Below, piece after piece: positions 24,567 to 47,383 of a stretch of DNA of 64,000 nucleotides; the first letter of the stretch is position 1; the number at the start of each line of letters is the position of its first letter. The position numbers were made by a program, and so were the translations under genes. Source of the DNA: a virus; the IMG/VR virus record IMGVR_UViG_3300047470_000212, positions 32,001 through 96,000 of that record; one strand, 5' to 3'. The notes under the pieces are model-generated. The model saw only the letters and a program-made list of their open reading frames with translations, searched no databases and was not told where the DNA came from.

Positions 24567-24569
24567 AGG

Positions 24570-28320: not shown

Positions 28321-28326
28321 GGCGGA

Positions 28327-28974: not shown

Positions 28975-30446
28975 TAGCCGATCCCTCCGGTCATGGTGAT
29001 GTTGGAGATGTTTCCGACCTTCGGGATCTCCCAGGCGCGGAAGACAACGTCGGCTGTGCCGGTCTGCGCGGCGTCCGCGCGGGCGATCATGGGGATGTCG
29101 ACGTAGCGCACGCCGTCCACCGCGAGCAGGGCCTTGTAGAAGTCGCTGAGGGTCATCCGCATACCGAAGTCGACGTTGGCGAATCCGAGCATGTTCTTCA
29201 GGGCCTGCTGCACGTCGTAGAGGACCGAGGCCCTGGAGTAGCGGGGCCAGCACTCGACGGTGATGGGCTTGGTGGACGAGCCGACGTTCACGCTGACCAC
29301 GGATGGGCCTGCCACGGTGACTGTGGAGCCCGCCAGGGCCTTGGCCTGGAGGGTGGCCTGCACGTTGTTCAGGGTCGTTGTGTTGGGCTGTCCGCCGTCC
29401 GCTCCGATGACGTACACGGAGACGCTGGTGTAGGTCGAGGCGACGGCGTTGGCCCGGACGATGCCGGGAAGGGTCAGTGCCAGGTCGGAGAAGTCCCGGA
29501 GGGTGACGCAGCGGTCCTGACTGCGGAAGATTCGCGGCGCGTTGGCCCTGATCTGATCGTTGGTCTCGGGGTCTGCACCGCCGGACATGGCCGAGGAGAT
29601 CGCCGTGCCGCTGGAGTTCTGGGCGATGGTGACGCCGGGCAGGTTCGAGGAGGCGAGGGCGTTGACCACGCCCGCGTTGACGTTTCCGATCGTGCCGCCA
29701 CCGACGCGGTAGGTCGCGTAGATGGTCAACTGACTGTTGGGGATGGCGCCGTTGATGTTGTCGCCGAAGCGGATCCACGCTGCGCCGGAGTCGTCCAGGA
29801 ACGTCGTGAACACCTTGTCTTCGGGGTCGGCGTCCACCAGGTAGTTGATGTAGGTCCACTCGGTCGCGGCGTTGACGTCGTCCACGAAGACCTGCACGGT
29901 GCCGTTGATGACGGGCACGTCCGGCAGCCGGAACTCCTGCACGGGCAGGCCCGAGCTGGTGCCAACGTTGACCTGGCTGCGGGTGACTCCCTGGGTGACC
30001 GGGACTGTGGCCTTGCCACCGTTGACCGGCACCAGGATGTCGGAGTCGGTCTCGTAGGTGACCGGGCTGTCGATGGTGTCGATGTAGTCGGTGACGACCT
30101 GAGTGCCCGCAGGCACCAGGACAGCCGGTCCGGGGTTGGACGTCTGGAAGGTGACCGTGCCAGTGGCCGGGACACCGTTGCTCGGGGTGTAGCCGAGCAG
30201 GTCCGCAATCTGGAGCAGGGACAGGCGCTGGGTCGCGGTCGGCAGGAAGGCCTCCTGCTGGAGCCGGTCACCGTAGTAGGAGAGGCTGTCCCCGAGGTAG
30301 GAGAACAGCTCGACCATGAGCACGCCGAAGTCGCCCTCCGAGCCAGGTACCCACTGCGGGAAGGCTCGGGCGGCGTAGTCCAGCAGGGAGGCCTTGAAGC
30401 CCTCGTAATCCCGACTGGTGTAGTCGATAGCCGGTACGTCAGCCAC
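28974..30446 (-). CDS. Baseplate J-like wedge protein
   Basis: IDYT.RD...., DFG..LVELF.Y.GD.LSYY.D, GGAD.ET, R.VT..DF. Confidence 0.9.
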   Translation of the reverse strand: MADVPAIDYTSRDYEGFKASLLDYAARAFPQWVPGSEGDFGVLMVELFSYLGDSLSYYGDRLQQEAFLPTATQRLSLLQIADLLGYTPSNGVPATGTVTFQTSNPGPAVLVPAGTQVVTDYIDTIDSPVTYETDSDILVPVNGGKATVPVTQGVTRSQVNVGTSSGLPVQEFRLPDVPVINGTVQVFVDDVNAATEWTYINYLVDADPEDKVFTTFLDDSGAAWIRFGDNINGAIPNSQLTIYATYRVGGGTIGNVNAGVVNALASSNLPGVTIAQNSSGTAISSAMSGGADPETNDQIRANAPRIFRSQDRCVTLRDFSDLALTLPGIVRANAVASTYTSVSVYVIGADGGQPNTTTLNNVQATLQAKALAGSTVTVAGPSVVSVNVGSSTKPITVECWPRYSRASVLYDVQQALKNMLGFANVDFGMRMTLSDFYKALLAVDGVRYVDIPMIARADAAQTGTADVVFRAWEIPKVGNISNITMTGGIG

Positions 30447-30858
30447 TGATGACCTCGCTTACGGTGCCGCCCACACGCACCACAGCGGTGTTGGTCTGGA
30501 GCGACAGGCTGGATGGGGACGCCCCGGCCTCGCGGCGCATGTAGTCGACCTCGATACGGGCGAGCGACATCTGGGAGGCATCAGGGATAGGGGTGGCCCT
30601 CTGGAGGAGCACACCGGGCTCGTACCGGTCGAATGCAGAGGTCACGGCACGGCTGATTTCCTGCGCGACAAAGGTCGCGTCAGGGTCGAAAAGCAGATCG
30701 GCCACCGGGACTCCATAGTCCGGGAGCATGACCCGCTCCCCCGGCTGCGTGCCGACGAGCGCATTGACATGCTGGGCGATCTGCCTGTCGGGATTCGTCT
30801 CGACGGCGATTTTCCCGTCGGACGCAAGTCGAAATGGAACTGCAATCTCGGTAGGCAT
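30439..30858 (-). CDS. gp25/GpW-like baseplate wedge protein
   Basis: L..T.PGERVM.PDYG.....LF.P...YEP. Confidence 0.9.
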   Translation of the reverse strand: MPTEIAVPFRLASDGKIAVETNPDRQIAQHVNALVGTQPGERVMLPDYGVPVADLLFDPDATFVAQEISRAVTSAFDRYEPGVLLQRATPIPDASQMSLARIEVDYMRREAGASPSSLSLQTNTAVVRVGGTVSEVISG

Positions 30859-30899
30859 GCTTGCATTCTCCCAGGAATGCCTACCGAGATTGCAGTTCC
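30836..30899. repeat. 23-bp perfect inverted repeat covering the gp25 start codon
   Basis: GGAACTGCAATCTCGGTAGGCAT (30836-30858) / ATGCCTACCGAGATTGCAGTTCC (30877-30899). Confidence 0.9.
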
Positions 30900-30908
30900 G
30901 TTCTCAGA

Positions 30909-31208
30909 TCAGAAGCCGGGGAACGCTACCTGCCCGTCGGCCAGCACCTGGTCGTTCTGTGCGGCGACGTCTACGTCTATCTGGTGCCTGGCGGCGTTGT
31001 AGTCCTGGGCGGCCTGGTTGTAGAGCGGCGAGGCAGCGTTCTGGTTCACGTTCTGCTCCCACGACAGCCAGTTGTCCCTGACGTAGGACTTGAACGCGTA
31101 CTCCAGGAGTTCCTGGTCGCCCAACTGAGAGTCGACGTAGATGCCGTGGAAGGACGCTGCTACTCGGGGCCAGAATTCGTCGGGAATAGAGATCGTGATG
31201 TCGGTCAT
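30909..31208 (-). CDS. Hypothetical tail-fibre-associated protein
   Basis: ATG 31208 after GAGGA; 99 aa. Confidence 0.6.
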   Translation of the reverse strand: MTDITISIPDEFWPRVAASFHGIYVDSQLGDQELLEYAFKSYVRDNWLSWEQNVNQNAASPLYNQAAQDYNAARHQIDVDVAAQNDQVLADGQVAFPGF

Positions 31209-31224
31209 TAAAGGGACGTCCTCA

Positions 31225-34200
31225 CTACTTTGTGTACGTGATTTTGAGTTGCGGCGGGTGGCTGTCTCCGACACCGCTGAAGATGCCGTAGTAAGTCTTG
31301 TCGGTGCTGGAGCCGAGATCTCCACCGAGCGTGATTCCACGATACGGGGTAGCGGAGTTCCAACCTGAATTCCAGGACGACGGCAAAGTAACCCACTTGC
31401 CTGCACCAACCGGCCACGATGAAACGGTCAGGTTGTTGCTGGAGGCCATTCCGGACGCAACGCCAGTCTGGGTGTGCACACCGATATGCGCGGTACCGCC
31501 ACCGTTGTAATACCAGTGGCTGGCGTAGAGGTAGATCTCGACCTTGGAGACCTTCGCCGTGGAGCCCATGTCTGTGAACGGCTGGGTACCGAATCCGACC
31601 ATCGACTTCTGGGTGCCCCAGGTTCCGGAGTAGTAGCCCTGGTACATCGTGCCGTCGGTGTTACCTGCGTTACCGAATCGCCGGGACCACACCGCGTTGT
31701 AGGTCTTGGTGTACGTCTTCGTCGCGGTGACCGCAGCGCCGCCCGTGTTGTAGACGCCGCCCTCGGGTACGGCCGGGCCGATGTCCTCGACGTAGAAGTC
31801 CGAGGACTGCGCGGGGCTGTAGTTGCGCAGACCCCAGCCGGTGGCATTGCCCGAGTGGATGGCCCCTACCCACAGGATCCGGTGATCGCCTGGAGCCAGG
31901 GCCGTGTTCGACGCGTAGAGACCGCCTGCGTCGGACGAGCACACGATGATGCCCTCGACCACGCACGTGCCATCCGAGCCCGCGCCGTCGTAGAACATGC
32001 CCATGTTTCGAGCAATGGTCGTGTCAGTGACCTTCGGGCTTACCCCGTTTGGGTTGATGGTCGTGCATCCGTTAAGAACCGTCGTCGTGCCGGAGGCGTT
32101 CACGTACGTCTCCAACTCCTGCACACCGGTCCCGCCGTTGAGGTCGAACTGCGACCGGGCGACGATGCGGTACATCCGTCCCTCGACGGCCGTGAAGGCC
32201 AGCTCGATGATGCCCGTGTCGGTGGTGTAGTAGGTCGTGGCTGTGGGTCTTCCCGTCCACCCTCGCTCGTAGGTGACCATTCCCCATGGCAGGTTCCACA
32301 GCAGGTCGGAGAGTTCCTTGCCCTGGTACCAAATCTGACCGATGGGGTCGTCGCTGGCCGTGCCGACAGGTCGCTGCGGGGTCCATAGGGAGTTGAAGGT
32401 GCCGACACCGTTGGAGTCGATGGCCGCCGCACCGCCTGCGAATGTCGCGTGGGCGTTGTCCGTGGTCATCTCGGTGGCCAGCGTGCCGTCCGGCCCGTAC
32501 AGGCGCAGGCCGCCAGCGGAGATGTCGGTGGCGCCGTAGCCCTCGCGCATGACGATGACGTCGTCCACGCAGATGTACGAGAACGCGGTGGTCGAGAGAC
32601 CGTAGGAGCCTGGGTTCAACTGCTGGAAGGAGACGCGGCCCCACACCGCACCGGTCGGGATGGTGACCTCGAAGATGTCCTCGGTGTACGAGGCGGCGTT
32701 GTACGTGATGTCGTTGACGCCCGCCATCTGGTCGGTCCAGGTGACGTTGTCCGGGCTGGTCTCAAAGGTGACGTGTAGGTGGCCGATGCCGTAGTACCAG
32801 TACCGGAGCATGTAGGTCTCGGCCGCGACGACCGGGAAGGCGTTGCTGGTGACGGTCGCGGTGCCGGTGTTCTTCACTCCCAGGGCCGCCTTGCCCTGGC
32901 CGGAGCGCGCGGGGTAACCGCCCTGGGCAATCTCAATCTTGGCCGCTGTGGTGGCCAGAGTGCTGTCGCTCTGGGTGAGGGTCCAGCCGGTGCGGGAGGT
33001 GTCCTCGAAGCCGCCGTTGGTCACCAGGTTGCCGGAGACCGCACCGAGGGAGATGTGCTGGGCGTTGACGTTGCCCAGGTTGATGTTGCTGGAGCCCACC
33101 TGCCCCGTCTCGACGACCTCGATGGTGAAGATGTCGAGTTCGGCGGTGCCTGTGCCACCCGAGTAGTTGAGGTACAGGCAGGGGCTGATGTACTTCACGT
33201 TCTGGTGAAGCCTCATGGGCGAGGTCGGGTTGGGGTTGGGACCAGCGTCTCCGGTCGCGGCCGTGCCCTTGATATATCCGGTGTACGTAATCCACCCGGA
33301 GCCTGTGGTCAGGGGTGTGGCCCTCACGGCTGCGTAGGCCTGGCTGCCGGTGCTGTTGGCGCCGGAGATGTTGACGAGGGTCACACCGTCGGCTGCGATG
33401 CCTGTGACACCTGCGTAGACGGTCTGGTTGGTGCCTGGGGTGGAGTTGTCGACGGTCTGCCGCACCCGGGCGGTAACGCGGTAGGTCACCCCCGGGTCGA
33501 AGGGTATGAGCAGGTCCGGCCGACGGGCGCCCTGGATGTATCCGACGCAACGCATGACAGTCCCGCCGGAGGCTGCGTCGCTGACGCTGACGGTGGTCAT
33601 GGTGCCGGTACCGGATGGGCCGTTGACCCACTTGCTCGCCGAGTTGCCGAAGTCGTAGAACTTCTGGCCGACGGTGCCCTGGAGTCCGGCACTGAGTTTA
33701 TCGACGGTCAGCGTCCCGGCCTTGATGCTTGCGGCGTCCAGGTTGGTCACGCTGACCAGGCTGGCGTCGATGGTGCCGGTCTTGATCGAGCCGCCGCTGA
33801 TCGTGGTCGTGGTCGGGATGGTTCCGTTGCTCAACTGCCCGGCGGGTACGCTGACCCCCGCGCCAATGGAGCCGGTGACTGTGCCCGCGTTCGTGGCGGT
33901 GGTCGCGGAGGTAGCCGAGGTGGCGGCCGGTACGGTGCCGGTGACCTGGGTGCCTGGGACGGCGACTCCGGCGCCGAGAGATCCCGTGACGGTCCCTGCG
34001 CTGGTTGCCGAGGTAGCCGTGCCTGCCGTGGTCGCACTGGCGACCGGGCCGCTTACGTTCCCACCACCGATGACGAGGTTGGTCGCGTCGATCTGGGTAG
34101 CCGTCAACTTACCGACGGTGATCTTGCTGGCGTCGATGCTGGCGATGACACCGCTCTGGGCCGTGATCGTTCCGGCCGCCATCTGGTTGGCCGTGATCGT

Positions 34201-35583
34201 GTTCGCCGCGATCTGGTTGGCCGTGATGGTGTTGGCTGCCAGCCGGTCGCCCGTGATGGACCCGGCCAGGATCTGCGTGGCGGTGAGCGTCCCCGAGGTG
34301 ATCTTCGAGGCGTCCAGCGATCCGGTCGCGATGCGTGCAGCGTTGAGCGTGCCAGCGTTGATCTTGCCTGCGTCAAGGTTGGCGATCTTGGCGTTGTTGA
34401 TGGCGGCGTCGGCGATCTGAGCGGTGCCGACTGCGAGGTTGGCGATCTTCGCCGTGCCGATCGTGGCGTCGGCGATCTGCGCGCCGGTTACGGCGTTGTT
34501 GGCGATGTTGATCGTGCCGACGGCCAGGGCGGCCAGCTTCCCGGCTTCGATCGCACCGTTGGCAACGGCCTGCGCTGTCACCGCGTTGGCGGCCAGCTTG
34601 GTGTCGTCGATGGCGCCGACCGCGATCTTCGCTGCGGTCAGTTGGCCGTCGAGGATGTCCTGTGCGACGGCCTGCTTGGGGGTGTCCGAGGCGTATCCGG
34701 ACGGTGCCGAGGCGACGCCCACCTTGGAGTAGGCGACCAGCCGGTAGTAGTAGGCGTTGCCGTAGTTCTGTATGGAGTCGTAGGTGAAGTCAGCGCCGCG
34801 CAGTGTGGCGACGGTGACCGGGTTGGAAAACGCCGTGACGGTGTCCCGCTGCACCTGGACGCGGTCGAAGATGGCGGGCATGGCTGTACCGGTGGTGTCC
34901 AGGCCGTTCCACGTGACGCGCAGGCCTCCGAGCACGCCGACGACAGTCGGAGTGGACGGGACCGGAGGAGGCGTCGTCGAGGATGCGGTGACGATGTTCG
35001 CGGTCGCCCAGAGAGAGGCGTTACCGCTGGTGTCGATGGCCTGGGCGCGGACGTAAAGAGTCCGCCCGGTATGAAGTCCGTCGTAGACGATGAGGGTGTC
35101 TTCGGTGGCTGACCCGCCAGCCCAGTTCGTGCCGTCGTAGGAGGTCTGCACGAGGTAGTGCGACATGTCGGTGAGGGTGGTGCCGTCCTGGTTCTCCGTC
35201 GGTGCGGTCCACATCGCCGTCACGCTGGCCGAGGTGTCGCCCTCGGCGGTGACGTGCTGAACGGTGGTCAGGGAGAGGGCGGTCGGTTCCTTGGGAGGGA
35301 GGACGTCGGTGCCGTCGGTCGGCAGTTCGTCGACCTGGTCCTGGACCTCCTTGATGCCCAGCGGTGCATAGACCGGCCTGGTGATGTCACCGCCGGAGAA
35401 CTGCACCCACACCGACTGGCCGACGGGCGGCACGGTATTGGTGGGCGAGGACGGAACCGACCAGGCGCTCTCCGCATTGCCCAGAACCTGCGGGATCAGC
35501 AGAGTGACCCGGGCCTCGTTCAGAGGGTCCTGGTTATTGGCGACGCTCGCCCGGTACATGCCCAAAATGGGCTCAGCCGACAT
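31225..35583 (-). CDS. Baseplate spike (gp5/gpV OB-fold) fused to FN3 domains and a long fibre/receptor-binding region
   Basis: YRA.V..N.DP....RV...IP.V.G....W......P.VG..VWV.F.GGD...PV; decapeptide IxAGxITA repeats. Confidence 0.8.
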   Translation of the reverse strand: MSAEPILGMYRASVANNQDPLNEARVTLLIPQVLGNAESAWSVPSSPTNTVPPVGQSVWVQFSGGDITRPVYAPLGIKEVQDQVDELPTDGTDVLPPKEPTALSLTTVQHVTAEGDTSASVTAMWTAPTENQDGTTLTDMSHYLVQTSYDGTNWAGGSATEDTLIVYDGLHTGRTLYVRAQAIDTSGNASLWATANIVTASSTTPPPVPSTPTVVGVLGGLRVTWNGLDTTGTAMPAIFDRVQVQRDTVTAFSNPVTVATLRGADFTYDSIQNYGNAYYYRLVAYSKVGVASAPSGYASDTPKQAVAQDILDGQLTAAKIAVGAIDDTKLAANAVTAQAVANGAIEAGKLAALAVGTINIANNAVTGAQIADATIGTAKIANLAVGTAQIADAAINNAKIANLDAGKINAGTLNAARIATGSLDASKITSGTLTATQILAGSITGDRLAANTITANQIAANTITANQMAAGTITAQSGVIASIDASKITVGKLTATQIDATNLVIGGGNVSGPVASATTAGTATSATSAGTVTGSLGAGVAVPGTQVTGTVPAATSATSATTATNAGTVTGSIGAGVSVPAGQLSNGTIPTTTTISGGSIKTGTIDASLVSVTNLDAASIKAGTLTVDKLSAGLQGTVGQKFYDFGNSASKWVNGPSGTGTMTTVSVSDAASGGTVMRCVGYIQGARRPDLLIPFDPGVTYRVTARVRQTVDNSTPGTNQTVYAGVTGIAADGVTLVNISGANSTGSQAYAAVRATPLTTGSGWITYTGYIKGTAATGDAGPNPNPTSPMRLHQNVKYISPCLYLNYSGGTGTAELDIFTIEVVETGQVGSSNINLGNVNAQHISLGAVSGNLVTNGGFEDTSRTGWTLTQSDSTLATTAAKIEIAQGGYPARSGQGKAALGVKNTGTATVTSNAFPVVAAETYMLRYWYYGIGHLHVTFETSPDNVTWTDQMAGVNDITYNAASYTEDIFEVTIPTGAVWGRVSFQQLNPGSYGLSTTAFSYICVDDVIVMREGYGATDISAGGLRLYGPDGTLATEMTTDNAHATFAGGAAAIDSNGVGTFNSLWTPQRPVGTASDDPIGQIWYQGKELSDLLWNLPWGMVTYERGWTGRPTATTYYTTDTGIIELAFTAVEGRMYRIVARSQFDLNGGTGVQELETYVNASGTTTVLNGCTTINPNGVSPKVTDTTIARNMGMFYDGAGSDGTCVVEGIIVCSSDAGGLYASNTALAPGDHRILWVGAIHSGNATGWGLRNYSPAQSSDFYVEDIGPAVPEGGVYNTGGAAVTATKTYTKTYNAVWSRRFGNAGNTDGTMYQGYYSGTWGTQKSMVGFGTQPFTDMGSTAKVSKVEIYLYASHWYYNGGGTAHIGVHTQTGVASGMASSNNLTVSSWPVGAGKWVTLPSSWNSGWNSATPYRGITLGGDLGSSTDKTYYGIFSGVGDSHPPQLKITYTK

Positions 35584-36721
35584 TGATATCCTCCAGAAGA
35601 CTCGACTCCCAGAACTGCCGATTTCTCAGGACAGCCGGGACGGTGTCGAATTTGAAACGCTTGTTCGCGTCGCTTCGAAATGTTACCGAGTAAGGTTGGT
35701 CTCTTTCTGCATCGACGGTTGTGGTGAACACCCATCCCGAGTTGCTCTTGTCCCGGTTGATGATGTGTTTGGTGCCGGTAACCATCCATCGACCCGTGCG
35801 ATCTGAGGAAATGGAGTTCCCTGTGACAGCGACCAGAGATCCCGGGACGATCTTTGCCGTCCCATACAGCGTGGCCTGCATGGTGATCCAGCCACGGGAA
35901 GCCAGCGTGCGGGCCTCCATAAGGGCCTGCGCGTCCGCGTAGTTGTCGACGGCCCTGGCGGTCGATATGGAATTGAGGAATGCAGACGCCCCGGTATTCG
36001 ACGAAGACGAAGCCTTGATCACCCGCCCGGTCTTCGCGTCCAGTCCGGAAATGCTGCTGGTGCCCGTCGTCCCGTTCTCGCGGGGAACCATGGTGCCCGT
36101 CAGGATCGACATCTCCCGCAAGGTGTCCATAACCCCGGGCTGCTGATTCTTGGAGAACACAGGGATGTTCTGCGCGTTCTGCCCCACAAGGAGAATGCGC
36201 GGGTCGAGGAAGTAGAGCGTCGTCCCCTCCACCCAGAAACGGAATCCGACTTCGTGCGCCAGGTCCTGGAGGAGTTTGAAATCGCTCTGCCCGCTCTGCG
36301 CCCAGTAGGTAAGGCGCCGAGAGGACGGGGAGATGACTGTGCGCAGCCCGTTCTGTCGGCCCACCTGGCGGGCGATGGAGGTGGGGCTGACGTTCTTCCA
36401 GGACCGGGTCCGCTGGATGTTCAGCGGGAGGGTGGTGCCGATACACACGTACCGCGTGGTGACCGTCTGGGCACCGCCGCTGGCCAGGACGCTGGAGTGG
36501 TGCACGTAGCCGTACCAGCGGACCATGTCGTTGGGGCTGCGGCCGTAGTCGAGAACCACCGGAGCCAGCTCGGGGTAGGCCGAGCTGTTGGCGCTGGTCG
36601 TGACGTCCACGAGCGCCATGGAGTGCACGCCGTATCCCTCGCGGACTTCGACGCGCTTGATGAGGTTGTTGATGCGGTTGCCGGAGATGGTCAGGTTGGT
36701 TACTGGCGTCGACTCAGGCAT
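35573..36721 (-). CDS. Baseplate hub (late control D/gp27-like)
   Basis: Q.GQSDF.LL..LA...GF.FWV....LYF; G.W.VT...H. Confidence 0.8.
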   Translation of the reverse strand: MPESTPVTNLTISGNRINNLIKRVEVREGYGVHSMALVDVTTSANSSAYPELAPVVLDYGRSPNDMVRWYGYVHHSSVLASGGAQTVTTRYVCIGTTLPLNIQRTRSWKNVSPTSIARQVGRQNGLRTVISPSSRRLTYWAQSGQSDFKLLQDLAHEVGFRFWVEGTTLYFLDPRILLVGQNAQNIPVFSKNQQPGVMDTLREMSILTGTMVPRENGTTGTSSISGLDAKTGRVIKASSSSNTGASAFLNSISTARAVDNYADAQALMEARTLASRGWITMQATLYGTAKIVPGSLVAVTGNSISSDRTGRWMVTGTKHIINRDKSNSGWVFTTTVDAERDQPYSVTFRSDANKRFKFDTVPAVLRNRQFWESSLLEDINVG

Positions 36722-36986
36722 TCGGGATCCTGACAATCTGGCCCGGCGTAAGGACCGTCCAGTCCAAGATCTCGGGATTGGCGTCGGCGATGTGCCACCA
36801 CATCCGGGCGTCGCCGAAGTACTGCACGGCGAGCAGGTCGATACGGTCGGAGCCGTTCAACTGGTGGTAGGTGAAGTTGAATGCCCACTCCCGCTGCTGG
36901 GATGGCACGAGGGTGAGGTTCGTCCCGCGTCCGGAGGCGACCAGCGTGAGCGTGGATTCTGCATACCGGGAAGTAGCGGAGATCAT
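36714..36986 (-). CDS. LysM/tail-X-like baseplate protein
   Basis: SRY...DRID.LA..Y.GD...WW.IADANP.....L.PG..VRIP. Confidence 0.85.
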   Translation of the reverse strand: MISATSRYAESTLTLVASGRGTNLTLVPSQQREWAFNFTYHQLNGSDRIDLLAVQYFGDARMWWHIADANPEILDWTVLTPGQIVRIPNA

Positions 36987-37741
36987 CGTCCGGCCTTTCC
37001 GTTCGCGCCCTTGGCGAATTCGTCCGGCGTCAGTCCGGCCGGGAGCCTGCCGAAGGACACGAACTCCCCGCCGCCCTTTGGCTTCGGAAGCAACTGCATG
37101 GTGATGCCGACTTGGCAGCGGGACGGGATCATCTGCTGGGTCCAGTGGGTGTACTGGATTTCCAGGTCCTGGATGACCCCGTAGTAGTTCAGGGTGTCGC
37201 CGACGATGAGGTAGACCGGGACGTAGAGCATGGGTCCGGCCGCATCGAAACTGAACTGACCCTTTCGGAAGGACTTCGTGGAGTCGCCCTTGGCGTCCTC
37301 CCCCTCACCGGTTACCGCTACCGACGCGGAAATACCGGTGATCTTGTAGAGCAGGGAGATGTCCCAGCCCACGCCGAGAGCAGGCACGAATACGTTCTCG
37401 GCGCCGGACACCCGGGAGGAGTCCCACATCTCGTAGGTGCGGTCGAACAGCAGGTTGAACTGGACCGTCTGCTGCAACGGCATCAGGAAGTCCTTTGCCG
37501 TCACGTCGTTCGGGTTCAGTGCGTTGTCGTCTGCCTGGACCGCCGAGTTCACGGAGTGGGAAACGTTCAGGACGCTTGGGTTGTAGAGGAAGTTGCACCG
37601 GTAGCGCACTCCGTCGACCGGCTTTTCCTGGATGATGAAGCCACGGCTCAACTTCTTCCCGCCGCCCACAAGGGACTGGAGGCCGGGGAGTTTCGTTATC
37701 CGTGGGTCGAAGGAGCCGTTGTCCTGGATCCGCGTAGCCAT
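36983..37741 (-). CDS. Tail tube initiator-like protein
   Basis: F.YNP..L, F.LLFDRT, GVI..L.I.YTH......P.R; position after the tape measure gene. Confidence 0.7.
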   Translation of the reverse strand: MATRIQDNGSFDPRITKLPGLQSLVGGGKKLSRGFIIQEKPVDGVRYRCNFLYNPSVLNVSHSVNSAVQADDNALNPNDVTAKDFLMPLQQTVQFNLLFDRTYEMWDSSRVSGAENVFVPALGVGWDISLLYKITGISASVAVTGEGEDAKGDSTKSFRKGQFSFDAAGPMLYVPVYLIVGDTLNYYGVIQDLEIQYTHWTQQMIPSRCQVGITMQLLPKPKGGGEFVSFGRLPAGLTPDEFAKGANGKAGR

Positions 37742-37827
37742 CAGACACCCACCGCAAAGTCGAAGCGGCGAGTGTTCCGGAGGCGGGGCCCAGGGCCCCA
37801 GGTATGAAGTCGGTCAGTGAAAGCCAT
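37741..37827 (-). CDS. 28-aa bridging ORF MAFTDRLHTWGPGPRLRNTRRFDFAVGV
   Basis: TAATG overlap with the tape-measure stop and TGATG overlap with the next start; in-frame CTT-CAT-ACC. Confidence 0.65.
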   Translation of the reverse strand: MAFTDRLHTWGPGPRLRNTRRFDFAVGV

Positions 37828-40820
37828 TAGTTACCTGCCGCGATGAGATTGATCCGGTTGTCCTCGGCGATGGCCTGCATGAACTGCTGGGCTGCATCCC
37901 GGGCCGAGCGCTGGTCCATGACGCCCTGTACCTGCACGGTGATCGCACCGGTGTGGAAGTTCAGGGTGGGCGAGGCGCCCTTGGTATGAAGCCCGCCGAC
38001 GCTGGCCATGGCGTTGTTCCCGGCCAGGACGTTACGGATGGCCTCGGCCTGGTAGGCGGGGATGATCATCTCGCCCTTGTGGATGCGTGCCGTCTGGTCG
38101 ACGTCCACGTTGGTCGAGCCGACCGCGTATCCCTTGTAGCCACCGCCGTTGTTCATGCTCTTGATGCCGGGGGTATTTCCCAGCGAGCCGTAGCGGGAGT
38201 CCGCGTAACGCACACCAGCGATGATGTTGTCGACCGGGTTCCAAATGTCTTTATGGCCCTTGATCGAGTAGTGATTGAACGTCGAATCGATGGTCTGCAT
38301 AATGCCCTTGGACGGGTGACCGGCCTTGGCATTGCTGTCCGTCAGGTTGATGGCTCGGGGGTTACCACCGGACTCGTGCATGATCATCGTGTTGACGATC
38401 CGCTCGTTGGCCTTCGAGTCCTGCTTGATGATTCCGAGCGCAGACTTGATCCACTTCGCGACGTTCCCCTTCGGCATAGGGCCGGTAGGAACGCCGTTGT
38501 CGCTCTTCTCCTTCTTGTCCCCGGCACCTCCGCTGGAGCCGACGCTCGCCGAACCGATGGCGGAGATACCGGCCGCGATGGCGTCGGCCTCCTCGGTGGA
38601 CCCGTAACTGCCGACGTCCCCGCCGAAGCCCATGGTGGACAGGCGGTTGTCGGAGGAACCGGCGGTGTCGGTGCTGTCGTCGGACGGGTCGCCCATGTTG
38701 CCGACCGAGCCCAGGATCCGGCGTGCGTTGGTGAACTCGCTTGGCCGGTAGGAGCGGACGCGGACCACGGCGCCCGTGTGCGGCGCCTCGATGATCTTGC
38801 CGTTGCCTATGCACATCACGACGTGATGGGCGGGGTTCCCGTTGAAGAGAAGGTCGCCTGCACGGACCTCGGAGAGTTTCACTGCCGAGCCGGTCTTCTG
38901 CTGCTGCGCAGCCGTGCGGGGAATCGACACACCGATCTGCCGGAACGAGTACTGAAGCAGGCCGGAGCAGTCGAAGCCCTTGGGAGTACTGCCACCCCAC
39001 ACGTACTTCACGCCGAGGTACTTCATGGCGACCTTGATGACCGCAGCGGCCGTCTTGCCTGCGCCCTGCGTACCGGTGGCCTTCGACCCGGACTTACCCG
39101 AGCCTCCCGTGGCGGCCGAGGCGTTGCTCTCCCCGGCGCCACCGAAGATGCCGATACCGGCGCCGATCGCACCACCGACCACAGCACCGACACCGGTACC
39201 GATGACCGGGACGATGGAACCGATCGCAGCACCGGTCAGTGCACCCGTGGCGGTGTCCACGCCGACATGGCCCCACTTGTTGCCAGTCGAGCCCTTCTTG
39301 CTGACCTTGTCGACCAACTGACCACCGAAGTGGTGCGTGCCCAACGCGGCCAGACCGAAGCCACCTGCCGCGCCCAGGGCGGCACCGGACAGGTCCAGCG
39401 CTCCGGCCGCAGTGGCGGAACCTATTGCGCCTCGGGCGGCACCCAGGATGCCTCCCCCACTACTTCCGCCCATGCCAGCGAGACGGCCCACGCTGGCCAG
39501 GCCACGCGCAGCGCCGTAGGCGCCGATACCGCTGCCGATGCTGGAGCCCAGCAGGGAGCCAGCGCCACCACCCCAGCCCAGGAGTGTGTCCGCGCCAGAC
39601 GACTTGAGAACGCTCTGGAGCGCGGTGGAGAACTTGTCCAGGTAGTCCGTAGCGGTCTTGAGACCTTCGGTGAACGCGTCGTTGGTGTTCACGTCTTGGT
39701 TTCGCAGGGTGCCCGCACGAGTCATCAGGGTGTTGGCCGACGAACCGCCGATACCCATCTTCCCGAGCGCGCTCTGAGCGGCGTTCTTCTTCTCCTGCGT
39801 GGAGCCGCTGTCGCGCTGGTTGGCGAGGCTGGTGTACGTCTGCGCGGAGCCTCCGTGGATCTGCGCGAGCATCATGCCCTTGAGTTCACCCTTGACCAGT
39901 TGCAGGGTGTTCGCGTCCAGGCCCCAGGAGTTCAACGACTGGTTCAGACCCGAGCCCGGGTCGTCGAGGGTCGCCGACAACTGTGCGTTCGACTTGACCC
40001 GCTTGAGTTCCGGGAACCGCTGGAAGATCTGCTGGGCGATCTGGCGAGGGCTCTGCTTCTGGCCGCTCTTGATCGTCTGAATGCCCATGCCGCGCAGCGT
40101 GTTGTACGTCGGCGCACTCCACGCGGCGACTGTGCCCTGGGCTCGCTGCGCCTCGGTCATGCCCGGGTTCATGTACCCCGAGGTGCCCTTGACGTAGTTC
40201 CAGTTCGTGTTGAAGTTCGCAGAGCCGGGCGACATGCCCACCTGCGAAATCGTGCCGTAGGCCTGCCCGGCATCCTGGGTGGACGCGGCGGTGAAGTTGT
40301 TCTTGAAGGCCTGGTCCCGCAGGGTGTGCCAGGACTGAGACGAGTACTGCGCCGCCTGGTAGGCGGTCGTCTGCATCAGGACCTGGTCGGGCAACTGCTT
40401 CTGGCCCCAGGCGACAGCAGCGGTGAGACCACCCTTGAGGGTGTGCGGGCTCCTCCGGCCACCGTTGTTGGCTGCGCCACCGCCCTGACGGGTAGTGCCC
40501 GAGCCACCGGATCCGCCGGAACTACCGGAGCCGCCGTTGTTGGCCGCACCGCCGCCCTGCGAGCCGTTGTTGGAGAAGCGGACGCCGCCACCGTTGCCGG
40601 TGCCACCGTTCCGCGACATGTGGTAGTTGCTGGTGCCGTTCCATACGTCACCGAGCGCCATACCGAGGCCTCGGCTGCGGGACATCTGCCCGACACCGGA
40701 ACTCACACCCTGGAGACCCCTGTTGAGGTCCGTCACGGTACGCGCGAGGGCAGAGATCGCGTCCTGGGCCTTGTTCCATCCCAAGAGCGGTCCCTGCCCC
40801 GCCACAGTACTCTCAGCCAT
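37827..40820 (-). CDS. Tape measure protein with NlpC/P60 peptidase and SLT transglycosylase domains
   Basis: LGV.YVWGG.TP.GFDCSGL, HV; ESGGNP.AIN..D.NA..G.PSKG.MQ.I..TF. Confidence 0.9.
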   Translation of the reverse strand: MAESTVAGQGPLLGWNKAQDAISALARTVTDLNRGLQGVSSGVGQMSRSRGLGMALGDVWNGTSNYHMSRNGGTGNGGGVRFSNNGSQGGGAANNGGSGSSGGSGGSGTTRQGGGAANNGGRRSPHTLKGGLTAAVAWGQKQLPDQVLMQTTAYQAAQYSSQSWHTLRDQAFKNNFTAASTQDAGQAYGTISQVGMSPGSANFNTNWNYVKGTSGYMNPGMTEAQRAQGTVAAWSAPTYNTLRGMGIQTIKSGQKQSPRQIAQQIFQRFPELKRVKSNAQLSATLDDPGSGLNQSLNSWGLDANTLQLVKGELKGMMLAQIHGGSAQTYTSLANQRDSGSTQEKKNAAQSALGKMGIGGSSANTLMTRAGTLRNQDVNTNDAFTEGLKTATDYLDKFSTALQSVLKSSGADTLLGWGGGAGSLLGSSIGSGIGAYGAARGLASVGRLAGMGGSSGGGILGAARGAIGSATAAGALDLSGAALGAAGGFGLAALGTHHFGGQLVDKVSKKGSTGNKWGHVGVDTATGALTGAAIGSIVPVIGTGVGAVVGGAIGAGIGIFGGAGESNASAATGGSGKSGSKATGTQGAGKTAAAVIKVAMKYLGVKYVWGGSTPKGFDCSGLLQYSFRQIGVSIPRTAAQQQKTGSAVKLSEVRAGDLLFNGNPAHHVVMCIGNGKIIEAPHTGAVVRVRSYRPSEFTNARRILGSVGNMGDPSDDSTDTAGSSDNRLSTMGFGGDVGSYGSTEEADAIAAGISAIGSASVGSSGGAGDKKEKSDNGVPTGPMPKGNVAKWIKSALGIIKQDSKANERIVNTMIMHESGGNPRAINLTDSNAKAGHPSKGIMQTIDSTFNHYSIKGHKDIWNPVDNIIAGVRYADSRYGSLGNTPGIKSMNNGGGYKGYAVGSTNVDVDQTARIHKGEMIIPAYQAEAIRNVLAGNNAMASVGGLHTKGASPTLNFHTGAITVQVQGVMDQRSARDAAQQFMQAIAEDNRINLIAAGN

Positions 40821-40987
40821 TTTCTGCCTCAGCCATTCGCCTATGTCGCTGCGCCTTGAACCACTTCACCCAGTGAAGACGCTCGCGCACGGTCAACCGG
40901 CGAATCTCGCTGAGGCTCCATGCCGGACTTAGTTCAACTAGTTGCTCGTATTCAAAGTACGTGTCGTGGTAATTACAGGCCCTGAAA
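40813..40987 (-). CDS. Tail chaperone C-terminal extension (GT-like), probably made by +1 frameshift
   Basis: EYEQL......WSLSEI..LT.RER..W motif but no usable start codon; +1 frame relative to the upstream gene. Confidence 0.65.
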
Positions 40988-41836
40988 CAGATCCCCCGCA
41001 CTGATAAAGAGGGGGACCTCCTTTCCACACACATCGTGTGTGAACTTGACATCATTGTACTGAGGGCCAGGTTGCTTTTCCTCAATCGCGTCGAGGATGC
41101 GCTTCCGGTCGATGATGCCCATGGAACGCGCGAACTCGGGATTACCGGTGACGGCATTCTCGGAGCCGTCTGCCTCCACCACGGAAATGAGGCAGCGCGA
41201 AAGCAGGAGGGTGTTCTGCTCGGACTCGGTGGTGCGCTCGACAACGGCGAGGATCGCGTCCTGGTCGGAGCCGACGGGCAGCCGGACGAAAGCCTTCCGG
41301 CCCCGGCGGAGTTCGACTTCGAAGATGCGCTGGGACGGGTCGTCCAGGCGCCGGACGGGGATCTCGTCGAGGGTGACGGAGAGACGGAACTCCTCGCCGC
41401 AGTGCGGGCAGGAGAAGCGCTCCCACACGATCTCGTCGCCGTAGGTAGCGCGCCGGATCTCCATCAGCAGCGCGTCGCGGTCGCCGAGCAGGAGGTTGCC
41501 CAGGAGAGCGGGGCCTGCCTTCTCGTCGCCCACCGAGATGGTGCCGGAGGTGAGCAGGGTGGAGATGAACTTGGCGATGCCGCCCTGGCGGGCCTTGGTG
41601 ATGGCCTCTTCGTCCGCGCCGGTCAGTTCTCGTACCTCGGCGTCGTAACGAGTGCTGGCGAAGTCGTTGCCCAGAACATAGCCGCCCGGCAGGCTGAAAT
41701 TGCCACCTGCCGGGAAGGCTATGTCGGGCTTCTTGACCTCGGTACCCTCGGAGAGCAAAGCCGCAATGGCAGAGTTTGCTGCACCAGGGTTCGCAAGGGG
41801 GTTGGAGTACCCCTCGGTATGAAGGTCGTTAGCCAC
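40973..41836 (-). CDS. Tail assembly chaperone / T4 gp26-like hub assembly protein
   Basis: RELTGADEE, L..GDRD.LL..IR..TYG, CPHCG; located between tube and tape measure. Confidence 0.75.
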   Translation of the reverse strand: MANDLHTEGYSNPLANPGAANSAIAALLSEGTEVKKPDIAFPAGGNFSLPGGYVLGNDFASTRYDAEVRELTGADEEAITKARQGGIAKFISTLLTSGTISVGDEKAGPALLGNLLLGDRDALLMEIRRATYGDEIVWERFSCPHCGEEFRLSVTLDEIPVRRLDDPSQRIFEVELRRGRKAFVRLPVGSDQDAILAVVERTTESEQNTLLLSRCLISVVEADGSENAVTGNPEFARSMGIIDRKRILDAIEEKQPGPQYNDVKFTHDVCGKEVPLFISAGDLFQGL

Positions 41837-41872
41837 TGGTTGTGCTCCTAGTCGAGTTTCGGGAATCCGCTA

Positions 41873-42424
41873 TTAGAAACTAACGGAAGAGGAGCCAGTA
41901 CTGTTAGCCAACTTGAACTCGAAACCCTCATGGGCGAGGGTCATCTGCTGGACGATGATCGCGTTGGCACCCGCGTCCAGGTCGGAGAAGGCCACTGCCG
42001 TCGGCCACGCGTTGTAGACGCGGAATGCCGCCTTGGCGGGAGTGGAGCCGGAAGTCACCGGGTGGTCGAGCACCTTGATGTCGACCATGTGCCGGAATTC
42101 CGCACCGGCCTTTCCGTTGCCGGTGCCCTGGAGGACAGTGAACAACTGCCGCATCCAGTCCATCATCTGGCTGTCGCCGACCGCGAGGCCCTTGGACAGC
42201 GTGATGGGGGCGAAGTCGCTCTGCCCTGGCATTTTCTGGGTCGTAGTGTTCATTCCGCCCTCACGGTACGGAATCACCTCAGTCGTTACGTTCAGCCCCG
42301 AAACGGACATGAAGCCCATGCGGGCGAAGCCCTTGATGCCGGGGTGCTGGATCTGCACCTGGAACTTGAAGTTCCTCAAGGGATCGGTGGCGATGTGCCC
42401 GATGGTGGGCGAAGTCGTAGCCAT
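41873..42424 (-). CDS. Tail tube protein (T4 gp19-like)
   Basis: DPLRNFKF.V, GF..VSGL...TE.I.YREGG, PG......ITL.KG, NAWP, LAHEG. Confidence 0.93.
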   Translation of the reverse strand: MATTSPTIGHIATDPLRNFKFQVQIQHPGIKGFARMGFMSVSGLNVTTEVIPYREGGMNTTTQKMPGQSDFAPITLSKGLAVGDSQMMDWMRQLFTVLQGTGNGKAGAEFRHMVDIKVLDHPVTSGSTPAKAAFRVYNAWPTAVAFSDLDAGANAIIVQQMTLAHEGFEFKLANSTGSSSVSF

Positions 42425-42438
42425 CAGTGGGTTACCTC

Positions 42439-43983
42439 TCAGGAAGTGGTCGTGCTGTCGTTGACGGTGGCCCCGCCGCTGGACTGACCGATCTCGATGA
42501 CGATGAACTCGGCAGGGGTCTGAAGAGCGACACCGACGGAGATGTTCACCGCACCGTTCGCCACCGACGCGGGGGTGTTGTTGGTCGAGTCGCAGACGAC
42601 GAAGAACGACTGGTCCGGAGTGGATCCGGCCAGCACGCCGGTCTGCATCAGCGTCAGCAGGTACTGCGAGATGACGGCGTTGACCTGGTCCCACAGGATC
42701 TGGTCGTTGGGCTCGAACACCGCGAAGCGGGTGGCGTCGAGGATGCCCTTCTTGATCAGCATCAGCGACCGGCGAACGGAGACGTAACGGTCCGGCATGC
42801 CGAGGCTCAGCGTGCGAGCCCCGTAGATGACGAAGCCGGTGCCCGGCATGGACTTGAGCACGTTGACGCCCGCCACGTTCAGCGTGTCCTGGTCGGCGTT
42901 GGAGAACCGGAACTGCACATCGAGCACGCCCTTGAGGACCGTGTCGATACCGGCCGGGGGCTTCTGCACACCGCGCGAGGCGTCGGTGCGGCTGTACTGA
43001 CCGAGGACCGCGCCGCCAGGAGGCAGCAGACGGGCCGAGCCGGACGACGAGGTGGCCGGGTCGTTGACGATCAGCCACGGCCCGTAGATCGCCGCGTACG
43101 AGGACGCACGGATCGCCGAGCCGCCCGAGGACATGCCCTGGAGGCTCAGTGCGTACGAGTGCGCGTTGTCGGCGCTGGTGGCCTTCTGGCCGTCCACGAC
43201 GACGAAGACCGTGCCCTGCCCTTCGGCCCACGTGATGATGGGGTTCAGGACGGTGGAGGAGGTGACACCGGGAACGTTCAGGACCAGGTTCTCCTCGACG
43301 ACCTCCAGCCGCTGGGCAGCGGTGGCCAAGTCAGCCGCAGCCACGCCGTCCGAACCGCCCGCCAGTGGGACGCCCGCCTGGAGCACCGGGGCGTGGTTGG
43401 CCGCCCACGCGGTCTGAAGCAGGCTCTCGACCTGAATGAACGCGGAGCCCGTGACCGGGGAGTTGATCAGGGCCGTCGCGTTGCGGGAGTCGGCAGGGTC
43501 CAGGGAGACGTCGGTGAAGCGCTCCTTGAGGAACGCAGCCGTGGCGCCGCCCACGTAGACGTACAGGTCGAACCGACCGGCGCCGGAGGAGGCCGCCGTG
43601 ACGTCGAGGTAAACGCCGTTGCCCCACCCGCCCGGGGATATCGCCTTGACCTTGAGGGTGTCCTTCGCGGTCGTCTCGGTGTCCTGAAGGGTGACGGACG
43701 CCGTGACCGCGTCGGAGGCGGCAGCGCGCACGATGTAGGCGCTGTTGCCACCGTTGTTGAAGAACTGGTAGACGGCGAACGGGAGCATGTCCGAGGTGTC
43801 GCCGAAGCCGCCGTAGGTGGCGACGTACTGCGAGAAGGACGAGACCAGCGTCGGGGCGAGCGGGCCGCCCTGCTTGGACGTGCCGACGAAGGCCGCGACG
43901 GACTCGCCGGGAGTCGTTGCGGTCTGCGCGAGCGGGGTCAGCGTCTCGTTGATGTAGACACCAGGCCGCTTGTAGACAGTCAT
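42439..43983 (-). CDS. Tail sheath protein
   Basis: Y.RPGVYI.E, YAA.Y.PW, D..RGV.K.PAG, GARTL, YV.VRR, VFEPN, PAEFI. Confidence 0.95.
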   Translation of the reverse strand: MTVYKRPGVYINETLTPLAQTATTPGESVAAFVGTSKQGGPLAPTLVSSFSQYVATYGGFGDTSDMLPFAVYQFFNNGGNSAYIVRAAASDAVTASVTLQDTETTAKDTLKVKAISPGGWGNGVYLDVTAASSGAGRFDLYVYVGGATAAFLKERFTDVSLDPADSRNATALINSPVTGSAFIQVESLLQTAWAANHAPVLQAGVPLAGGSDGVAAADLATAAQRLEVVEENLVLNVPGVTSSTVLNPIITWAEGQGTVFVVVDGQKATSADNAHSYALSLQGMSSGGSAIRASSYAAIYGPWLIVNDPATSSSGSARLLPPGGAVLGQYSRTDASRGVQKPPAGIDTVLKGVLDVQFRFSNADQDTLNVAGVNVLKSMPGTGFVIYGARTLSLGMPDRYVSVRRSLMLIKKGILDATRFAVFEPNDQILWDQVNAVISQYLLTLMQTGVLAGSTPDQSFFVVCDSTNNTPASVANGAVNISVGVALQTPAEFIVIEIGQSSGGATVNDSTTTS

Positions 43984-44023
43984 CTGTTATCTCCTGTTAG
44001 GGGTTATTTCCTGGGGCTCCGAA

Positions 44024-44674
44024 TTACTGATCCGGTGTCTGTGGTGCGGTTACGTCTTCCAGGTAGTACTCGAAGTCCAGTGCCACGGTCTGTGCCTTCA
44101 CGTACTGCAAGGCCGTTGCCGGAAGCATTTCGCTGGAAACAGAGATCAGGTATTCGCGGCGGAACAGCCGCTTTCCGTCCTCGTCTCGGGTGTCGACCAG
44201 CTCGGGCCCCCCAAGCAGATCCAGTCGGCGCACCGTTCCGTCTTCGGGAATCGCGAGGAATCCGAAGCGGGAAGGAATCCGGTCGTGCTGGGCAAGGGCC
44301 GCAGCAAGCGCCATGTCGTGCCAGTAGGTGCGGGAGAAGACGACAATCCGGTACCGCAGGTCGTACGGGATGGGGTACTCGACGATGTACGGGGACTTGG
44401 TGACGTCGTACGACGGGGAGTCCGGGTTCCACCACGGCTCGGAGCCCTCGGGTGCGTACGGGAGCCGTACCTGACCTCGGTGCTCGCGCTCGTCGGCCTT
44501 GTCGATCCCCGCGTGCTCGATGACGATCAGGGGGAACGTCTGCTTGGCCATCTCGCTTTCCGGCACGCGATAGCGCACCGGGACATCACGGCCATCCGGT
44601 GCGTTCACGTCAGTGACGGTGAGGCCCTGGAGTTTCGCCTTTACGGCGCGGTCCTCATTAATGAGCCATGGCAA
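44024..44674 (-). CDS. Tail completion/terminator protein
   Basis: Position directly upstream of the sheath gene; 216 aa. Confidence 0.6.
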   Translation of the reverse strand: MPWLINEDRAVKAKLQGLTVTDVNAPDGRDVPVRYRVPESEMAKQTFPLIVIEHAGIDKADEREHRGQVRLPYAPEGSEPWWNPDSPSYDVTKSPYIVEYPIPYDLRYRIVVFSRTYWHDMALAAALAQHDRIPSRFGFLAIPEDGTVRRLDLLGGPELVDTRDEDGKRLFRREYLISVSSEMLPATALQYVKAQTVALDFEYYLEDVTAPQTPDQ

Positions 44675-44750
44675 AGCGGGCCTCTTGAGATCTCGGAAAG
44701 CGGAAGTCCTCCGGCATTCAGGATCTCAAGAAGCCCGTCGAAGTTTGTAG

Positions 44751-46084: not shown

Positions 46085-46100
46085 TCCGCGACTCCTCCTG

Positions 46101-46822: not shown

Positions 46823-46843
46823 GGGATAGGTCTCCTTGGACCG

Positions 46844-47224: not shown

Positions 47225-47281
47225 TTCAATTCTCCGGGTTCGGGACTCGTTTATCGTGAAGCGGTACTACTCTAACGAGGA

Positions 47282-47318
47282 AGGGGAGCGGTCCTGGTAA
47301 TCCAGAACCCGCTCCCCT
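47282..47318 (-). terminator. Terminator after the major capsid gene
   Basis: AGGGGAGCGG...CCGCTCCCCT. Confidence 0.65.
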
Positions 47319-47383
47319 AACTTGTGGACTAGCCGGTTACCGCGAATACCAACTCAACTAGGATTCCTTGCGGAATCGCTGGC

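Follow-up and report, generated by a model that had tools for sequence, protein, structure and literature searches.

Why is a reading frame of only 28 codons lodged between the tape-measure gene and a tube-initiator-like gene of a phage tail module? The question arises from a 64,000-nt stretch (the window hereafter; bases 32001-96000) of the complete 107,080-bp virus record IMGVR_UViG_3300047470_000212, a 64.6% GC myophage genome with terminal repeats, in which the genes around this mini open reading frame (mini-ORF) lie on the minus strand. The mini-ORF carries one copy of a 9-base motif, and the original prediction, made from the window alone, held that the spacer obliges ribosomes to read the motif before they reinitiate on the baseplate genes. 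We find that the mini-ORF matters as an adaptor and not as a peptide: in every reading considered below, it is best seen as the link by which the tape-measure and tube-initiator genes stay translationally coupled despite the structured insert between them. The element recurs throughout the genome, and a one-base switch at orthologous sites in related phages points to a phage-wide control element not previously described. The explanation that we favor, tentatively and at somewhat less than even confidence, is an RNA element near translation starts that is read by a phage factor, with the mini-ORF maintaining coupling through the element. All structures discussed are predictions, and motif copies at orthologous sites should not be counted as independent events.

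A dispensable mini-ORF overlaps two tail genes

The tape-measure gene (997 aa in the ORF list; 37827..40820, minus strand) matches PHROG tape-measure and minor-tail families. The gene downstream of the mini-ORF (252 aa; 36983..37741, minus strand) is tube-fold or tube-initiator-like, with a CIS_tube match (E 2e-4) below the cut-off, and its relatives in Streptomyces phages are annotated as minor tail protein. Genes for tail protein X-like, gpD-hub-like, gpV-spike and gp25 proteins follow on its 3' side, and a sheath gene is located upstream. The PHROG matches, the sub-threshold tube hit and these neighbors identify the locus as a myovirus tail module, and the labels originally given to the two flanking genes are reasonable on the same grounds.

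The mini-ORF itself (37741..37827, minus strand) is an 86-bp insertion flanked by an ATGGCT repeat, and few relatives have it. The TAA stop of the tape-measure gene occupies 37829-37827, its final A being the first base of the mini-ORF ATG (TAATG), and the mini-ORF ends with TGA at 37743-37741, the A of which is shared with the ATG of the 252-aa gene (TGATG). The motif copy found here by the motif scan, CTTCATACC (37801..37809, minus strand), is read as Leu-His-Thr in the mini-ORF frame, within CGA-CTT-CAT-ACC. Both overlaps and the in-frame CTT-CAT-ACC, as first described, are thus confirmed on the minus strand by their coordinates. An open frame of 28 codons is by itself unremarkable in 64% GC DNA, and a second frame of the same 87 nt is likewise open.

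Comparison of 49 related loci, collected via the tube-fold protein, revealed three states of the junction. Most relatives, of both motif types described below, join the two genes directly as TAATG. The 28-codon form is present in L009, L010 and L023. In the third state the junction holds a 9-codon ORF in the same frame and with the same overlaps, which carries the sister motif CTTAATACC in L032 and L038-L047 and CTTCATACC in a Streptomyces prophage. Within the 28-codon form the motif and the first hairpin are conserved as nucleotides and the rest has diverged; between the genome of the window's phage (G000) and L023, nine codon changes are non-synonymous and three synonymous, with no indels and no stops. 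The three states and these codon changes indicate that the mini-ORF is an insertion, that it is dispensable and that its peptide is unconstrained. A mobile-element origin of the 86-bp insert was ruled out, as only the motif and a few flanking bases recur elsewhere and the insert is not repeated.

Conservation of the frame and of the overlaps had been proposed as a check on a translational role. Both are kept wherever the motif sits at the junction, which is always inside a coupled frame-0 ORF in the 28-codon and the 9-codon architectures alike, and a relative that retained the motif and lost the ORF or its frame was looked for and did not occur.

Two hairpins are predicted within the mini-ORF. 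The first, which belongs to the element, begins 2 nt past the motif and consists of a 6-bp GC stem with a 3-nt loop (37785..37799, minus strand). The second, of 10 bp (37742..37779, minus strand), has its 3' arm over a purine-rich stretch and the stop/start overlap of the downstream gene. The 101 nt around the mini-ORF (37735-37835) have a minimum free energy of -45.2 kcal/mol (z = -4.55). Since the second predicted hairpin would bury the downstream start region, ribosomes reading the mini-ORF would plausibly be required for reinitiation. The proposal that the spacer forces ribosomes over the motif (then termed a heptamer) before reinitiation therefore holds in part: the frame and overlaps are kept and the downstream start is predicted to be buried, but the junction copy is dispensable.

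The motif recurs genome-wide on the sense strand and in a single frame

The 8-base core of the motif, CTTCATAC, occurs 23 times in the window against 0.67 copies expected, a count that no shuffle reached, and 40 times in the genome, with 39 copies on the strand bearing nearly all genes. The motif core extends to the 9-mer CTTCATACC, with weak preferences at the next four bases. A second copy lies inside the tape-measure gene, 54 codons before its stop (37983..37991, minus strand), where sister genomes have CTTAATACC. The other minus-strand copies of the 8-base core recovered by the motif scan span 2578..59175, with 5' bases at 2586, 6583, 7027, 8217, 8886, 9729, 13190, 13978, 14717, 15604, 18010, 18381, 19990, 21504, 22802, 23212, 35076, 41824, 49266 and 59175. 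The sole opposite-strand copy (56203..56211, plus strand) is in frame and stands five codons inside the one gene block on the plus strand, upstream of the serine integrase. Every related genome likewise has exactly one reverse copy, whose type changes along with that of the other copies. All copies are therefore on the sense strand, the reverse copy included, by virtue of the sole reverse gene block. Their distribution is uneven: the mean spacing is ~2.7 kb with gaps of up to 12 and 18 kb, and 24 copies are found in a 32-kb replication module and none in an 18-kb accessory region.

The reading frame is equally restricted. In a tally that drew on nine related genomes, all 215 of the 215 copies with a confidently called coding frame are in frame 0 (CTT-MAT-ACC), and every coding copy of the motif of the G000 type reads Leu-His-Thr. 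Apparent exceptions are copies just upstream of a gene, which fall inside short ORFs of their own, each intergenic copy being preceded within a few codons by a start codon in its frame. Programmed frameshifting would call for a heptamer of the form X XXY YYZ, or for a hungry or stop codon next to a CUU-type +1 site; C-TTC-ATA-C is not slippery, and the next codon in frame 0 is His or Asn and not a stop. Nor did we find a conserved extended ORF in a shifted frame at the coding copies, where shifted frames are short and have low GC content at third codon positions. In more distant relatives (a Terracoccus prophage and others) we found no analogous motif, the enriched 8-mers there being protein repeats or seemingly common codons.

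The motif is followed by a hairpin. The 40 nt on its 3' side have a mean fold of -14.5 kcal/mol, compared with -10.1 kcal/mol at random genome positions (p ~2e-9); the excess was reproduced in a second genome, and the 40 nt upstream of the motif are no different from random. The motif center is predicted to be unpaired (paired fraction 0.14 vs 0.55 in controls), and positions +11 to +15 are paired in 79-86% of sites as against ~57% in controls. On these data the element has three parts: a 9-mer in single-stranded form, 2 nt of spacer and a GC hairpin whose sequence varies. A search of Rfam gave zero matches in the window at the gathering score.

Many copies are placed close to translation signals. 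Of 276 copies, 25 (from about five or six gene families) have an in-frame ATG precisely two codons before the motif, against 0-9 copies for each other distance, and no copy has an out-of-frame ATG within four codons. Near the other end of genes, 77 of 316 copies lie within 25 codons of a stop. That stop overlaps the next start in 57 of these 77 (57 being counted from the site listing), compared with 36 of 111 G000 genes, and several element hairpins adjoin or enclose the stop/start. Short motif-bearing ORFs also precede recA, a gene for a helix-turn-helix (HTH) replication initiator, the gene after primase and others; across the phage group, similar short ORFs with the motif are found before at least five other gene families. 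The ATG spacing, the stop/start overlaps and the short ORFs indicate that a sizeable subset of copies is built into regions of translation initiation or coupling, a placement that suits translation control better than a purely DNA-level signal.

Two of these sites deserve separate description. A 25-codon ORF that begins MSEETFL (6530-6607, minus strand) contains a motif copy, ends in TAATG on the next gene and is conserved in all genomes of both motif types. At recA (7007-8223, minus strand) the start varies by motif type: in the Asn type described below the copy is inside the RecA N-terminus, and in the His type it belongs to a leader of its own, 10 codons long, whose end overlaps a TTG start. 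The start of an unrelated gene elsewhere in the genome is identical to this site over the motif and the 9-10 bases after it.

Sister genomes carry a one-base variant at the same sites

Close relatives of the phage have CTTAATACC (Leu-Asn-Thr) at the same sites in place of CTTCATACC (Leu-His-Thr). Whole records fall into two kinds of genome, with ~30-40 copies of CTTCATAC or ~20-37 copies of CTTAATAC, and both motifs are strand-locked. Each genome is pure for one type, except for one stray copy in one lineage. More than 20 clusters of orthologous sites hold both types, such that conserved peptides otherwise alike differ by Leu-His-Thr vs Leu-Asn-Thr. The His form is also found in the prophage of Streptomyces sp. 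NPDC002088, which has 40 copies of CTTCATAC together with the 9-codon bridge ORF. The stray copy (59167-59175, minus strand) marks the sole site at which an Asn-type lineage (G001, L109-L111) retains CTTCATACC; recent recombination may have brought it in, or the site may be under a different constraint.

A coordinated change of one base at some 30 orthologous sites calls for a type-specific trans-acting reader of nucleic acid, and decoding alone leaves the switch unexplained. The frame lock, too, can be explained in part without translation, because one shifted frame of CTTAATACC contains TAA and the other is TTA-ATA; TTA and ATA are very rare codons in high-GC actinobacteria. This codon constraint on the sister motif does not fully explain the CTTCATACC copies, many of which have no orthologue of the sister type and none of which is ever in another frame.

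A special tRNA-His was rejected as the required decoder, since the long-arm tRNA-His is missing from two of the four complete CTTCATACC genomes (G003 and G004); tRNA-Asn(GTT) is present in all genomes. The gene in question, for an unusually long tRNA-His(GTG) of 86 nt, is located at genome positions 101737-101822 on the minus strand, outside the window, and among six complete or near-complete genomes scanned it was found in G000 and G002 only. In the same scan tRNA-Pro, tRNA-Leu and tRNA-Asn were present in all six genomes and tRNA-Phe in all but G004.

The mini-ORF had been put forward as the strongest single argument for a function at the level of translation, and this part of the original prediction is not supported. 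Most relatives are without the junction copy and the peptide is not conserved, the frame lock is explained in part by coding constraints, and the long-arm tRNA-His is missing from some genomes as just described. The genome-wide one-base switch, the hairpin at a fixed distance and the allele associations presented in the next section point instead to a factor that reads nucleic acid.

Candidate readers of the motif

In order to identify genes associated with motif type, we compared the 134 ORFs of G000 with those of eight relatives in a protein scan, and performed a separate scan at the DNA level. The best type-associated candidate for a trans-acting factor is a HicA-fold protein of 80 aa (61411..61653, minus strand). 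It showed the best segregation in the protein scan, with 65-79% identity within type and 38-40% between types, and its Asn-type allele has an insertion of 14-15 residues. Its gene and a 64-aa ORF were the two top loci of the DNA-level scan. Among further loci, the 11 with one HicA-like allele are purely CTTCATAC and the 10 with the other allele are essentially CTTAATAC, one stray orthologous copy aside. Sixteen of the 80 columns of the protein discriminate the types (8 + 7 distinct sequences), and the 3' end of the gene has a near-cognate motif of the matching type. The 64-aa co-varying protein was rejected as specificity determinant, as the CTTCATACC-type Streptomyces prophage carries its other allele; a fold search with it gave no clear match.

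The 80-aa protein matches a PHROG family annotated 'toxin' (E 7e-4). Its structural model (pLDDT 70) has an alpha-beta-beta-beta-alpha topology, corresponding to a predicted dsRNA-binding-like fold, and four HicA structures are among its six best structural matches: 6hpb from E. coli (Z 4.6, rmsd 3.0, 55 residues), 4p78 (Z 4.5), 6g26 (Z 4.2) and 1whz (Z 4.1). These Z scores of 4.1-4.6 are modest, and the domain is small. Residues G40, G41, N42 and H43 (GGNH, a Gly-x-His motif before the second strand) are invariant in all alleles, and H43 occupies what we take to be the position of the HicA catalytic His. A profile search against PDB sequences with the HicA-like alignment returned nothing relevant, and no paper on a phage HicA regulon was found in the searchable literature, which is incomplete. 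P0003 and P0004, used as third-allele queries, returned no new loci in viral or metagenome contigs; P0003 was later located in the Streptomyces prophage.

A long and strongly conserved hairpin lies just 3' of the HicA-like gene (61330-61400, minus strand) and is also present in L098-L118. In it CCCGGGTACC pairs with GGTACCCGGG around a smaller GTCGC/GCGAC stem; genomes of either motif type have it, possibly as a terminator or as a small RNA.

The second type-associated gene encodes a DnaG-type primase with a CHC2 zinc finger and a Toprim domain (18031..18999, minus strand). In a sample of the replication module comprising 19 His-type and 17 Asn-type loci, 25 of its 322 columns discriminate the types (12 + 11 distinct sequences), eight of them in the zinc-finger region. 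Its neighbors include a DnaB-like helicase with one discriminating column and an SNF2 helicase with 12 of 586, flanking genes as a whole having 1-12. When well-sampled genes are ranked by the density of discriminating columns, the HicA-like gene is first and the primase second. No HTH gene stood out by type in the association scans, in which sampling was limited, and a MerR-like gene of 154 aa has only four discriminating columns, one of them a His/Asn position.

Proposed mechanism and alternative explanations

The RNA-element explanation would run as follows. With the 86-bp insert, a single copy of a cis element found throughout the phage genome would have come to lie between tail genes whose translation is coupled. 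This element, a single-stranded CUUCAUACC with a 2-nt spacer and a variable GC hairpin, most likely acts in mRNA. At the junction it would be tolerated only as an open frame running from the tape-measure stop to the tube-initiator start, and ribosomes would cross both the element and the second hairpin, which hides the downstream start, and then reinitiate. A phage-encoded, sequence-specific factor, for which the HicA-fold protein is the best candidate, would bind or cut the element, distinguish the CUUCAUACC-hairpin RNA from its CUUAAUACC form, and control translation or coupling and the fate of mRNA for many phage genes. On this view the two motif types would define a pair of specificity groups, much as immunity groups are defined. 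We infer that the element acts as RNA, that the factor is the one named and that the outcome is regulatory; the RNA-element explanation accounts for the sense orientation of all copies including the reverse one, the unpaired motif and its hairpin, the placement of copies at starts and at coupled junctions and their uneven distribution, as well as for both specificity types and the association with the HicA-like gene.

Several observations weigh against this explanation. An RNA-binding factor by itself leaves the strict frame 0 unexplained, unless the factor acts on translating mRNA or needs passage of the ribosome. Covariation at orthologous hairpins is not above controls (8 covarying pairs vs 17.7). 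The Pfam HicA_toxin match of the candidate is sub-threshold (17.8 bits against a cut-off of 27, E 0.004; 18.7-20.2 bits for its homologues), and no HicB-like Pfam match was found among the neighbors of its gene. The HicA-like allele of the Streptomyces prophage, which is of the CTTCATACC type, is a hybrid nearer the other type (59% vs 51%) that retains His-type residues at 16 columns, and once this prophage is included no gene shows a clean whole-gene split by motif type. Association counts are moreover inflated by descent, because the Asn-type genomes are closely related in many genes, and the discriminating columns of the primase relative to its flanking genes suit a DNA-level reading. The HicA-like protein and the primase are both candidate readers.

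A bolder form of the RNA-element explanation would make the motif a phage-wide 'RNA stoperator', in which a small HicA-fold protein, acting as a nuclease or by binding RNA, would recognize ~40 in-frame copies of 9-mer and hairpin in mRNA under translation, with a one-base flip in specificity between sister lineages and two post-transcriptional groups resembling immunity groups. Action on ribosome-bound mRNA would explain why every copy, intergenic ones included, is in frame 0 of a translated ORF; as a whole we regard this version as rather unlikely. Unlikely too, yet the foremost of the rivals, is a single-stranded DNA priming signal, in which the 9-mer and its 3' hairpin serve a phage DnaG-type primase on the lagging-strand template. 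For the sense strand to be that template, forks would have to travel in the direction of transcription, or replication would have to proceed by rolling circle, and the mini-ORF and frame lock would be the cheapest fit of a DNA signal into tightly coupled coding sequence. The ssiA site of RSF1010, read by the RepB' primase, has the same layout of single-stranded stretch and hairpin. Priming would suit a motif that is single-stranded with its hairpin on the 3' side, the location of all copies but one on one strand at a mean spacing of ~2.7 kb, and the fact that the primase alone in its well-sampled neighborhood keeps many discriminating columns (25); zinc-binding domains are reported to set the template specificity of primases (T7; PMC2910064). 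It sits poorly with the reverse copy, which is in frame in the sole reverse gene block of every genome and so follows the transcript better than fork direction, and with the very uneven spacing, given gaps of up to 12 and 18 kb and 24 copies crowded into the 32-kb replication module. Priming also does not predict the preference for one intervening codon after ATG or the coupled stop/start junctions, and to our knowledge DnaG-type primase sites are trinucleotides and not 9-mers.

A pure translation signal would dispense with a dedicated reader: decoding of CUU-CAU-ACC, perhaps by the phage tRNA-His, would pause or modulate ribosomes, the hairpin would act as stimulator and the bridge ORF would force passage before the baseplate genes. 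In its favor are frame 0 at 215 of 215 called coding copies and in every mini-ORF, the in-frame starts upstream of intergenic copies, motif codons that are rare for this genome, a hairpin close on the 3' side, and an ORF and frame kept in both junction architectures. We nevertheless consider it quite improbable, since a His-to-Asn codon switch at ~30 orthologous sites in pure genomes needs a type-specific reader, all the genomes have tRNA-Asn(GTT), and only two of the four complete CTTCATACC genomes encode the long-arm tRNA-His. The motif, besides, lacks the form of a slippery heptamer, coding copies show no conserved ORF in the shifted frames, and TAA and rare codons in those frames account for part of the restriction to frame 0. 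Double-stranded DNA sites at which the repressor of a temperate phage binds the asymmetric 9-mer and blocks transcription, with the types as immunity groups, would fit a temperate family with recombinases and integrated relatives, as well as ~30-40 asymmetric sites that are co-oriented with transcription and differ in type between close relatives. One site is even an inverted repeat with a partial self-copy, in which a compensatory change between types keeps the pairing. Such sites, however, require neither an unpaired motif nor a hairpin at fixed distance and predict neither the frame lock nor the mini-ORFs, and no HTH protein was seen to segregate with type in the association scans, in which sampling was limited; we regard repressor binding as improbable. 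We give very little credence to a reader made of antisense RNA, for which the opposite-strand copy would be the source of a small RNA complementary to all copies and not a target. In its favor, every genome has a single complementary copy whose type changes along with that of the targets, and two specificity groups would follow from a single base change in such an RNA. Against it, the copy at 56203..56211 looks like an ordinary target on its own strand, where it is in frame 0 with an ATG five codons before it and a hairpin beginning 2 nt after it; neither a promoter nor a terminator nor an Rfam match points to an RNA gene at 56203-56211 (Rfam being empty in the window), and the protein allele associations would go unexplained.

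Relation to known systems

The phage family is temperate, with a tyrosine-recombinase-like gene, a large serine recombinase, and integrated relatives in Streptomyces, Terracoccus and Nonomuraea. We found no near relative in the isolated-phage collection, where the best matches of the tube-fold protein, at 35-40%, are to Streptomyces phages such as BRock. Literature searches with the motif strings gave only unrelated primer hits, and no description of this motif system was found in the searchable literature, which is incomplete.

In genome-wide layout the motif resembles the stoperators of Cluster A mycobacteriophages (the sites of L5 gp71), some 25-40 short asymmetric sites that are co-oriented with transcription and often at gene boundaries, with a sequence that differs from one related phage to the next and sets the specificity groups. 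An HTH repressor binds stoperators as double-stranded DNA, whereas the present motif is predicted to be unpaired, is followed by a variable hairpin at a fixed 2 nt and keeps to a single reading frame, and no HTH protein was seen to track its type in the association scans, given their limited sampling. The regulons of the T4 RegB endoribonuclease and RegA repressor resemble what is proposed here, namely a phage protein acting on a short RNA motif near many translation starts. The T4 motifs differ in lying within the ribosome-binding site (GGAG, or AU-rich around AUG) and not in frame inside ORFs, in having no adjoining hairpin and in having no known sister type with switched specificity; the factor here is putative and of a different, HicA-like fold. 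Leader and bridge ORFs of termination-reinitiation share with the mini-ORF the stop/start overlaps and the unconstrained peptide, and are typically short ORFs whose translation opens structure at the next start, as is predicted here; what sets the mini-ORF apart is that its one purpose is to hold a conserved element of nucleic acid.

Single-strand initiation signals for primases (RSF1010 ssiA with RepB'; the phage G4 origin with DnaG) have a layout like that predicted here, with a single-stranded stretch next to a hairpin on one strand, and are read by a cognate primase, as the priming reading would have it for the motif; they occur once or twice per replicon, at origins, and not in 40 copies inside genes. 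In the antisense RNAs C4 of P1/P7 and CI of P4, one or two co-changing bases in the reader and in targets near ribosome-binding sites set the groups; their genomes contain two or three targets each and their RNA is a defined processing product, and no such RNA gene was found here.

If the RNA-element explanation is true, temperate actinobacterial myophages would have a genome-wide control layer, new to description, written into coding sequence at ~40 places, with two mutually exclusive specificities that arose by joint change of the reader and some 30 orthologous sites. This would be a natural, sequence-defined case of concerted evolution of a regulator and its sites, and it could be turned into a small orthogonal element-reader pair for engineering Streptomyces. 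Either of the two leading mechanisms would depart from known examples, as an RNA target of a HicA-fold protein or as a 9-base primase signal.

Additional observations

One motif copy outside the window (L119:4215-4241, genome 4215-4241, minus strand) closes a small ORF; directly after it come a stop and an inverted, partial repeat of the motif (CATACC...GGTATG). Both arms are altered in the sister type (AATACC...GGTATT), and pairing is preserved. A strong hairpin and then an HTH_17/DUF2637 gene lie 3' of this site.

The large serine recombinase (56469-58553, plus strand) has a C-terminal DUF4096 domain resembling IS4/5 transposases. Its allele is shared by G001, G005 and G008 at 80-94% identity, the alleles of G002 and G004 are only 30-32% identical, and no comparable match was found in G003; integrase alleles therefore do not track motif type. 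The phage also encodes, outside the window, a polynucleotide kinase-phosphatase (PNKP; L121:9637-10827, minus strand) and an RlaP-like nucleotidyltransferase of an RNA repair family (L119:1864-2517, minus strand), a pair of RNA-repair functions that is notable next to a putative phage RNase.

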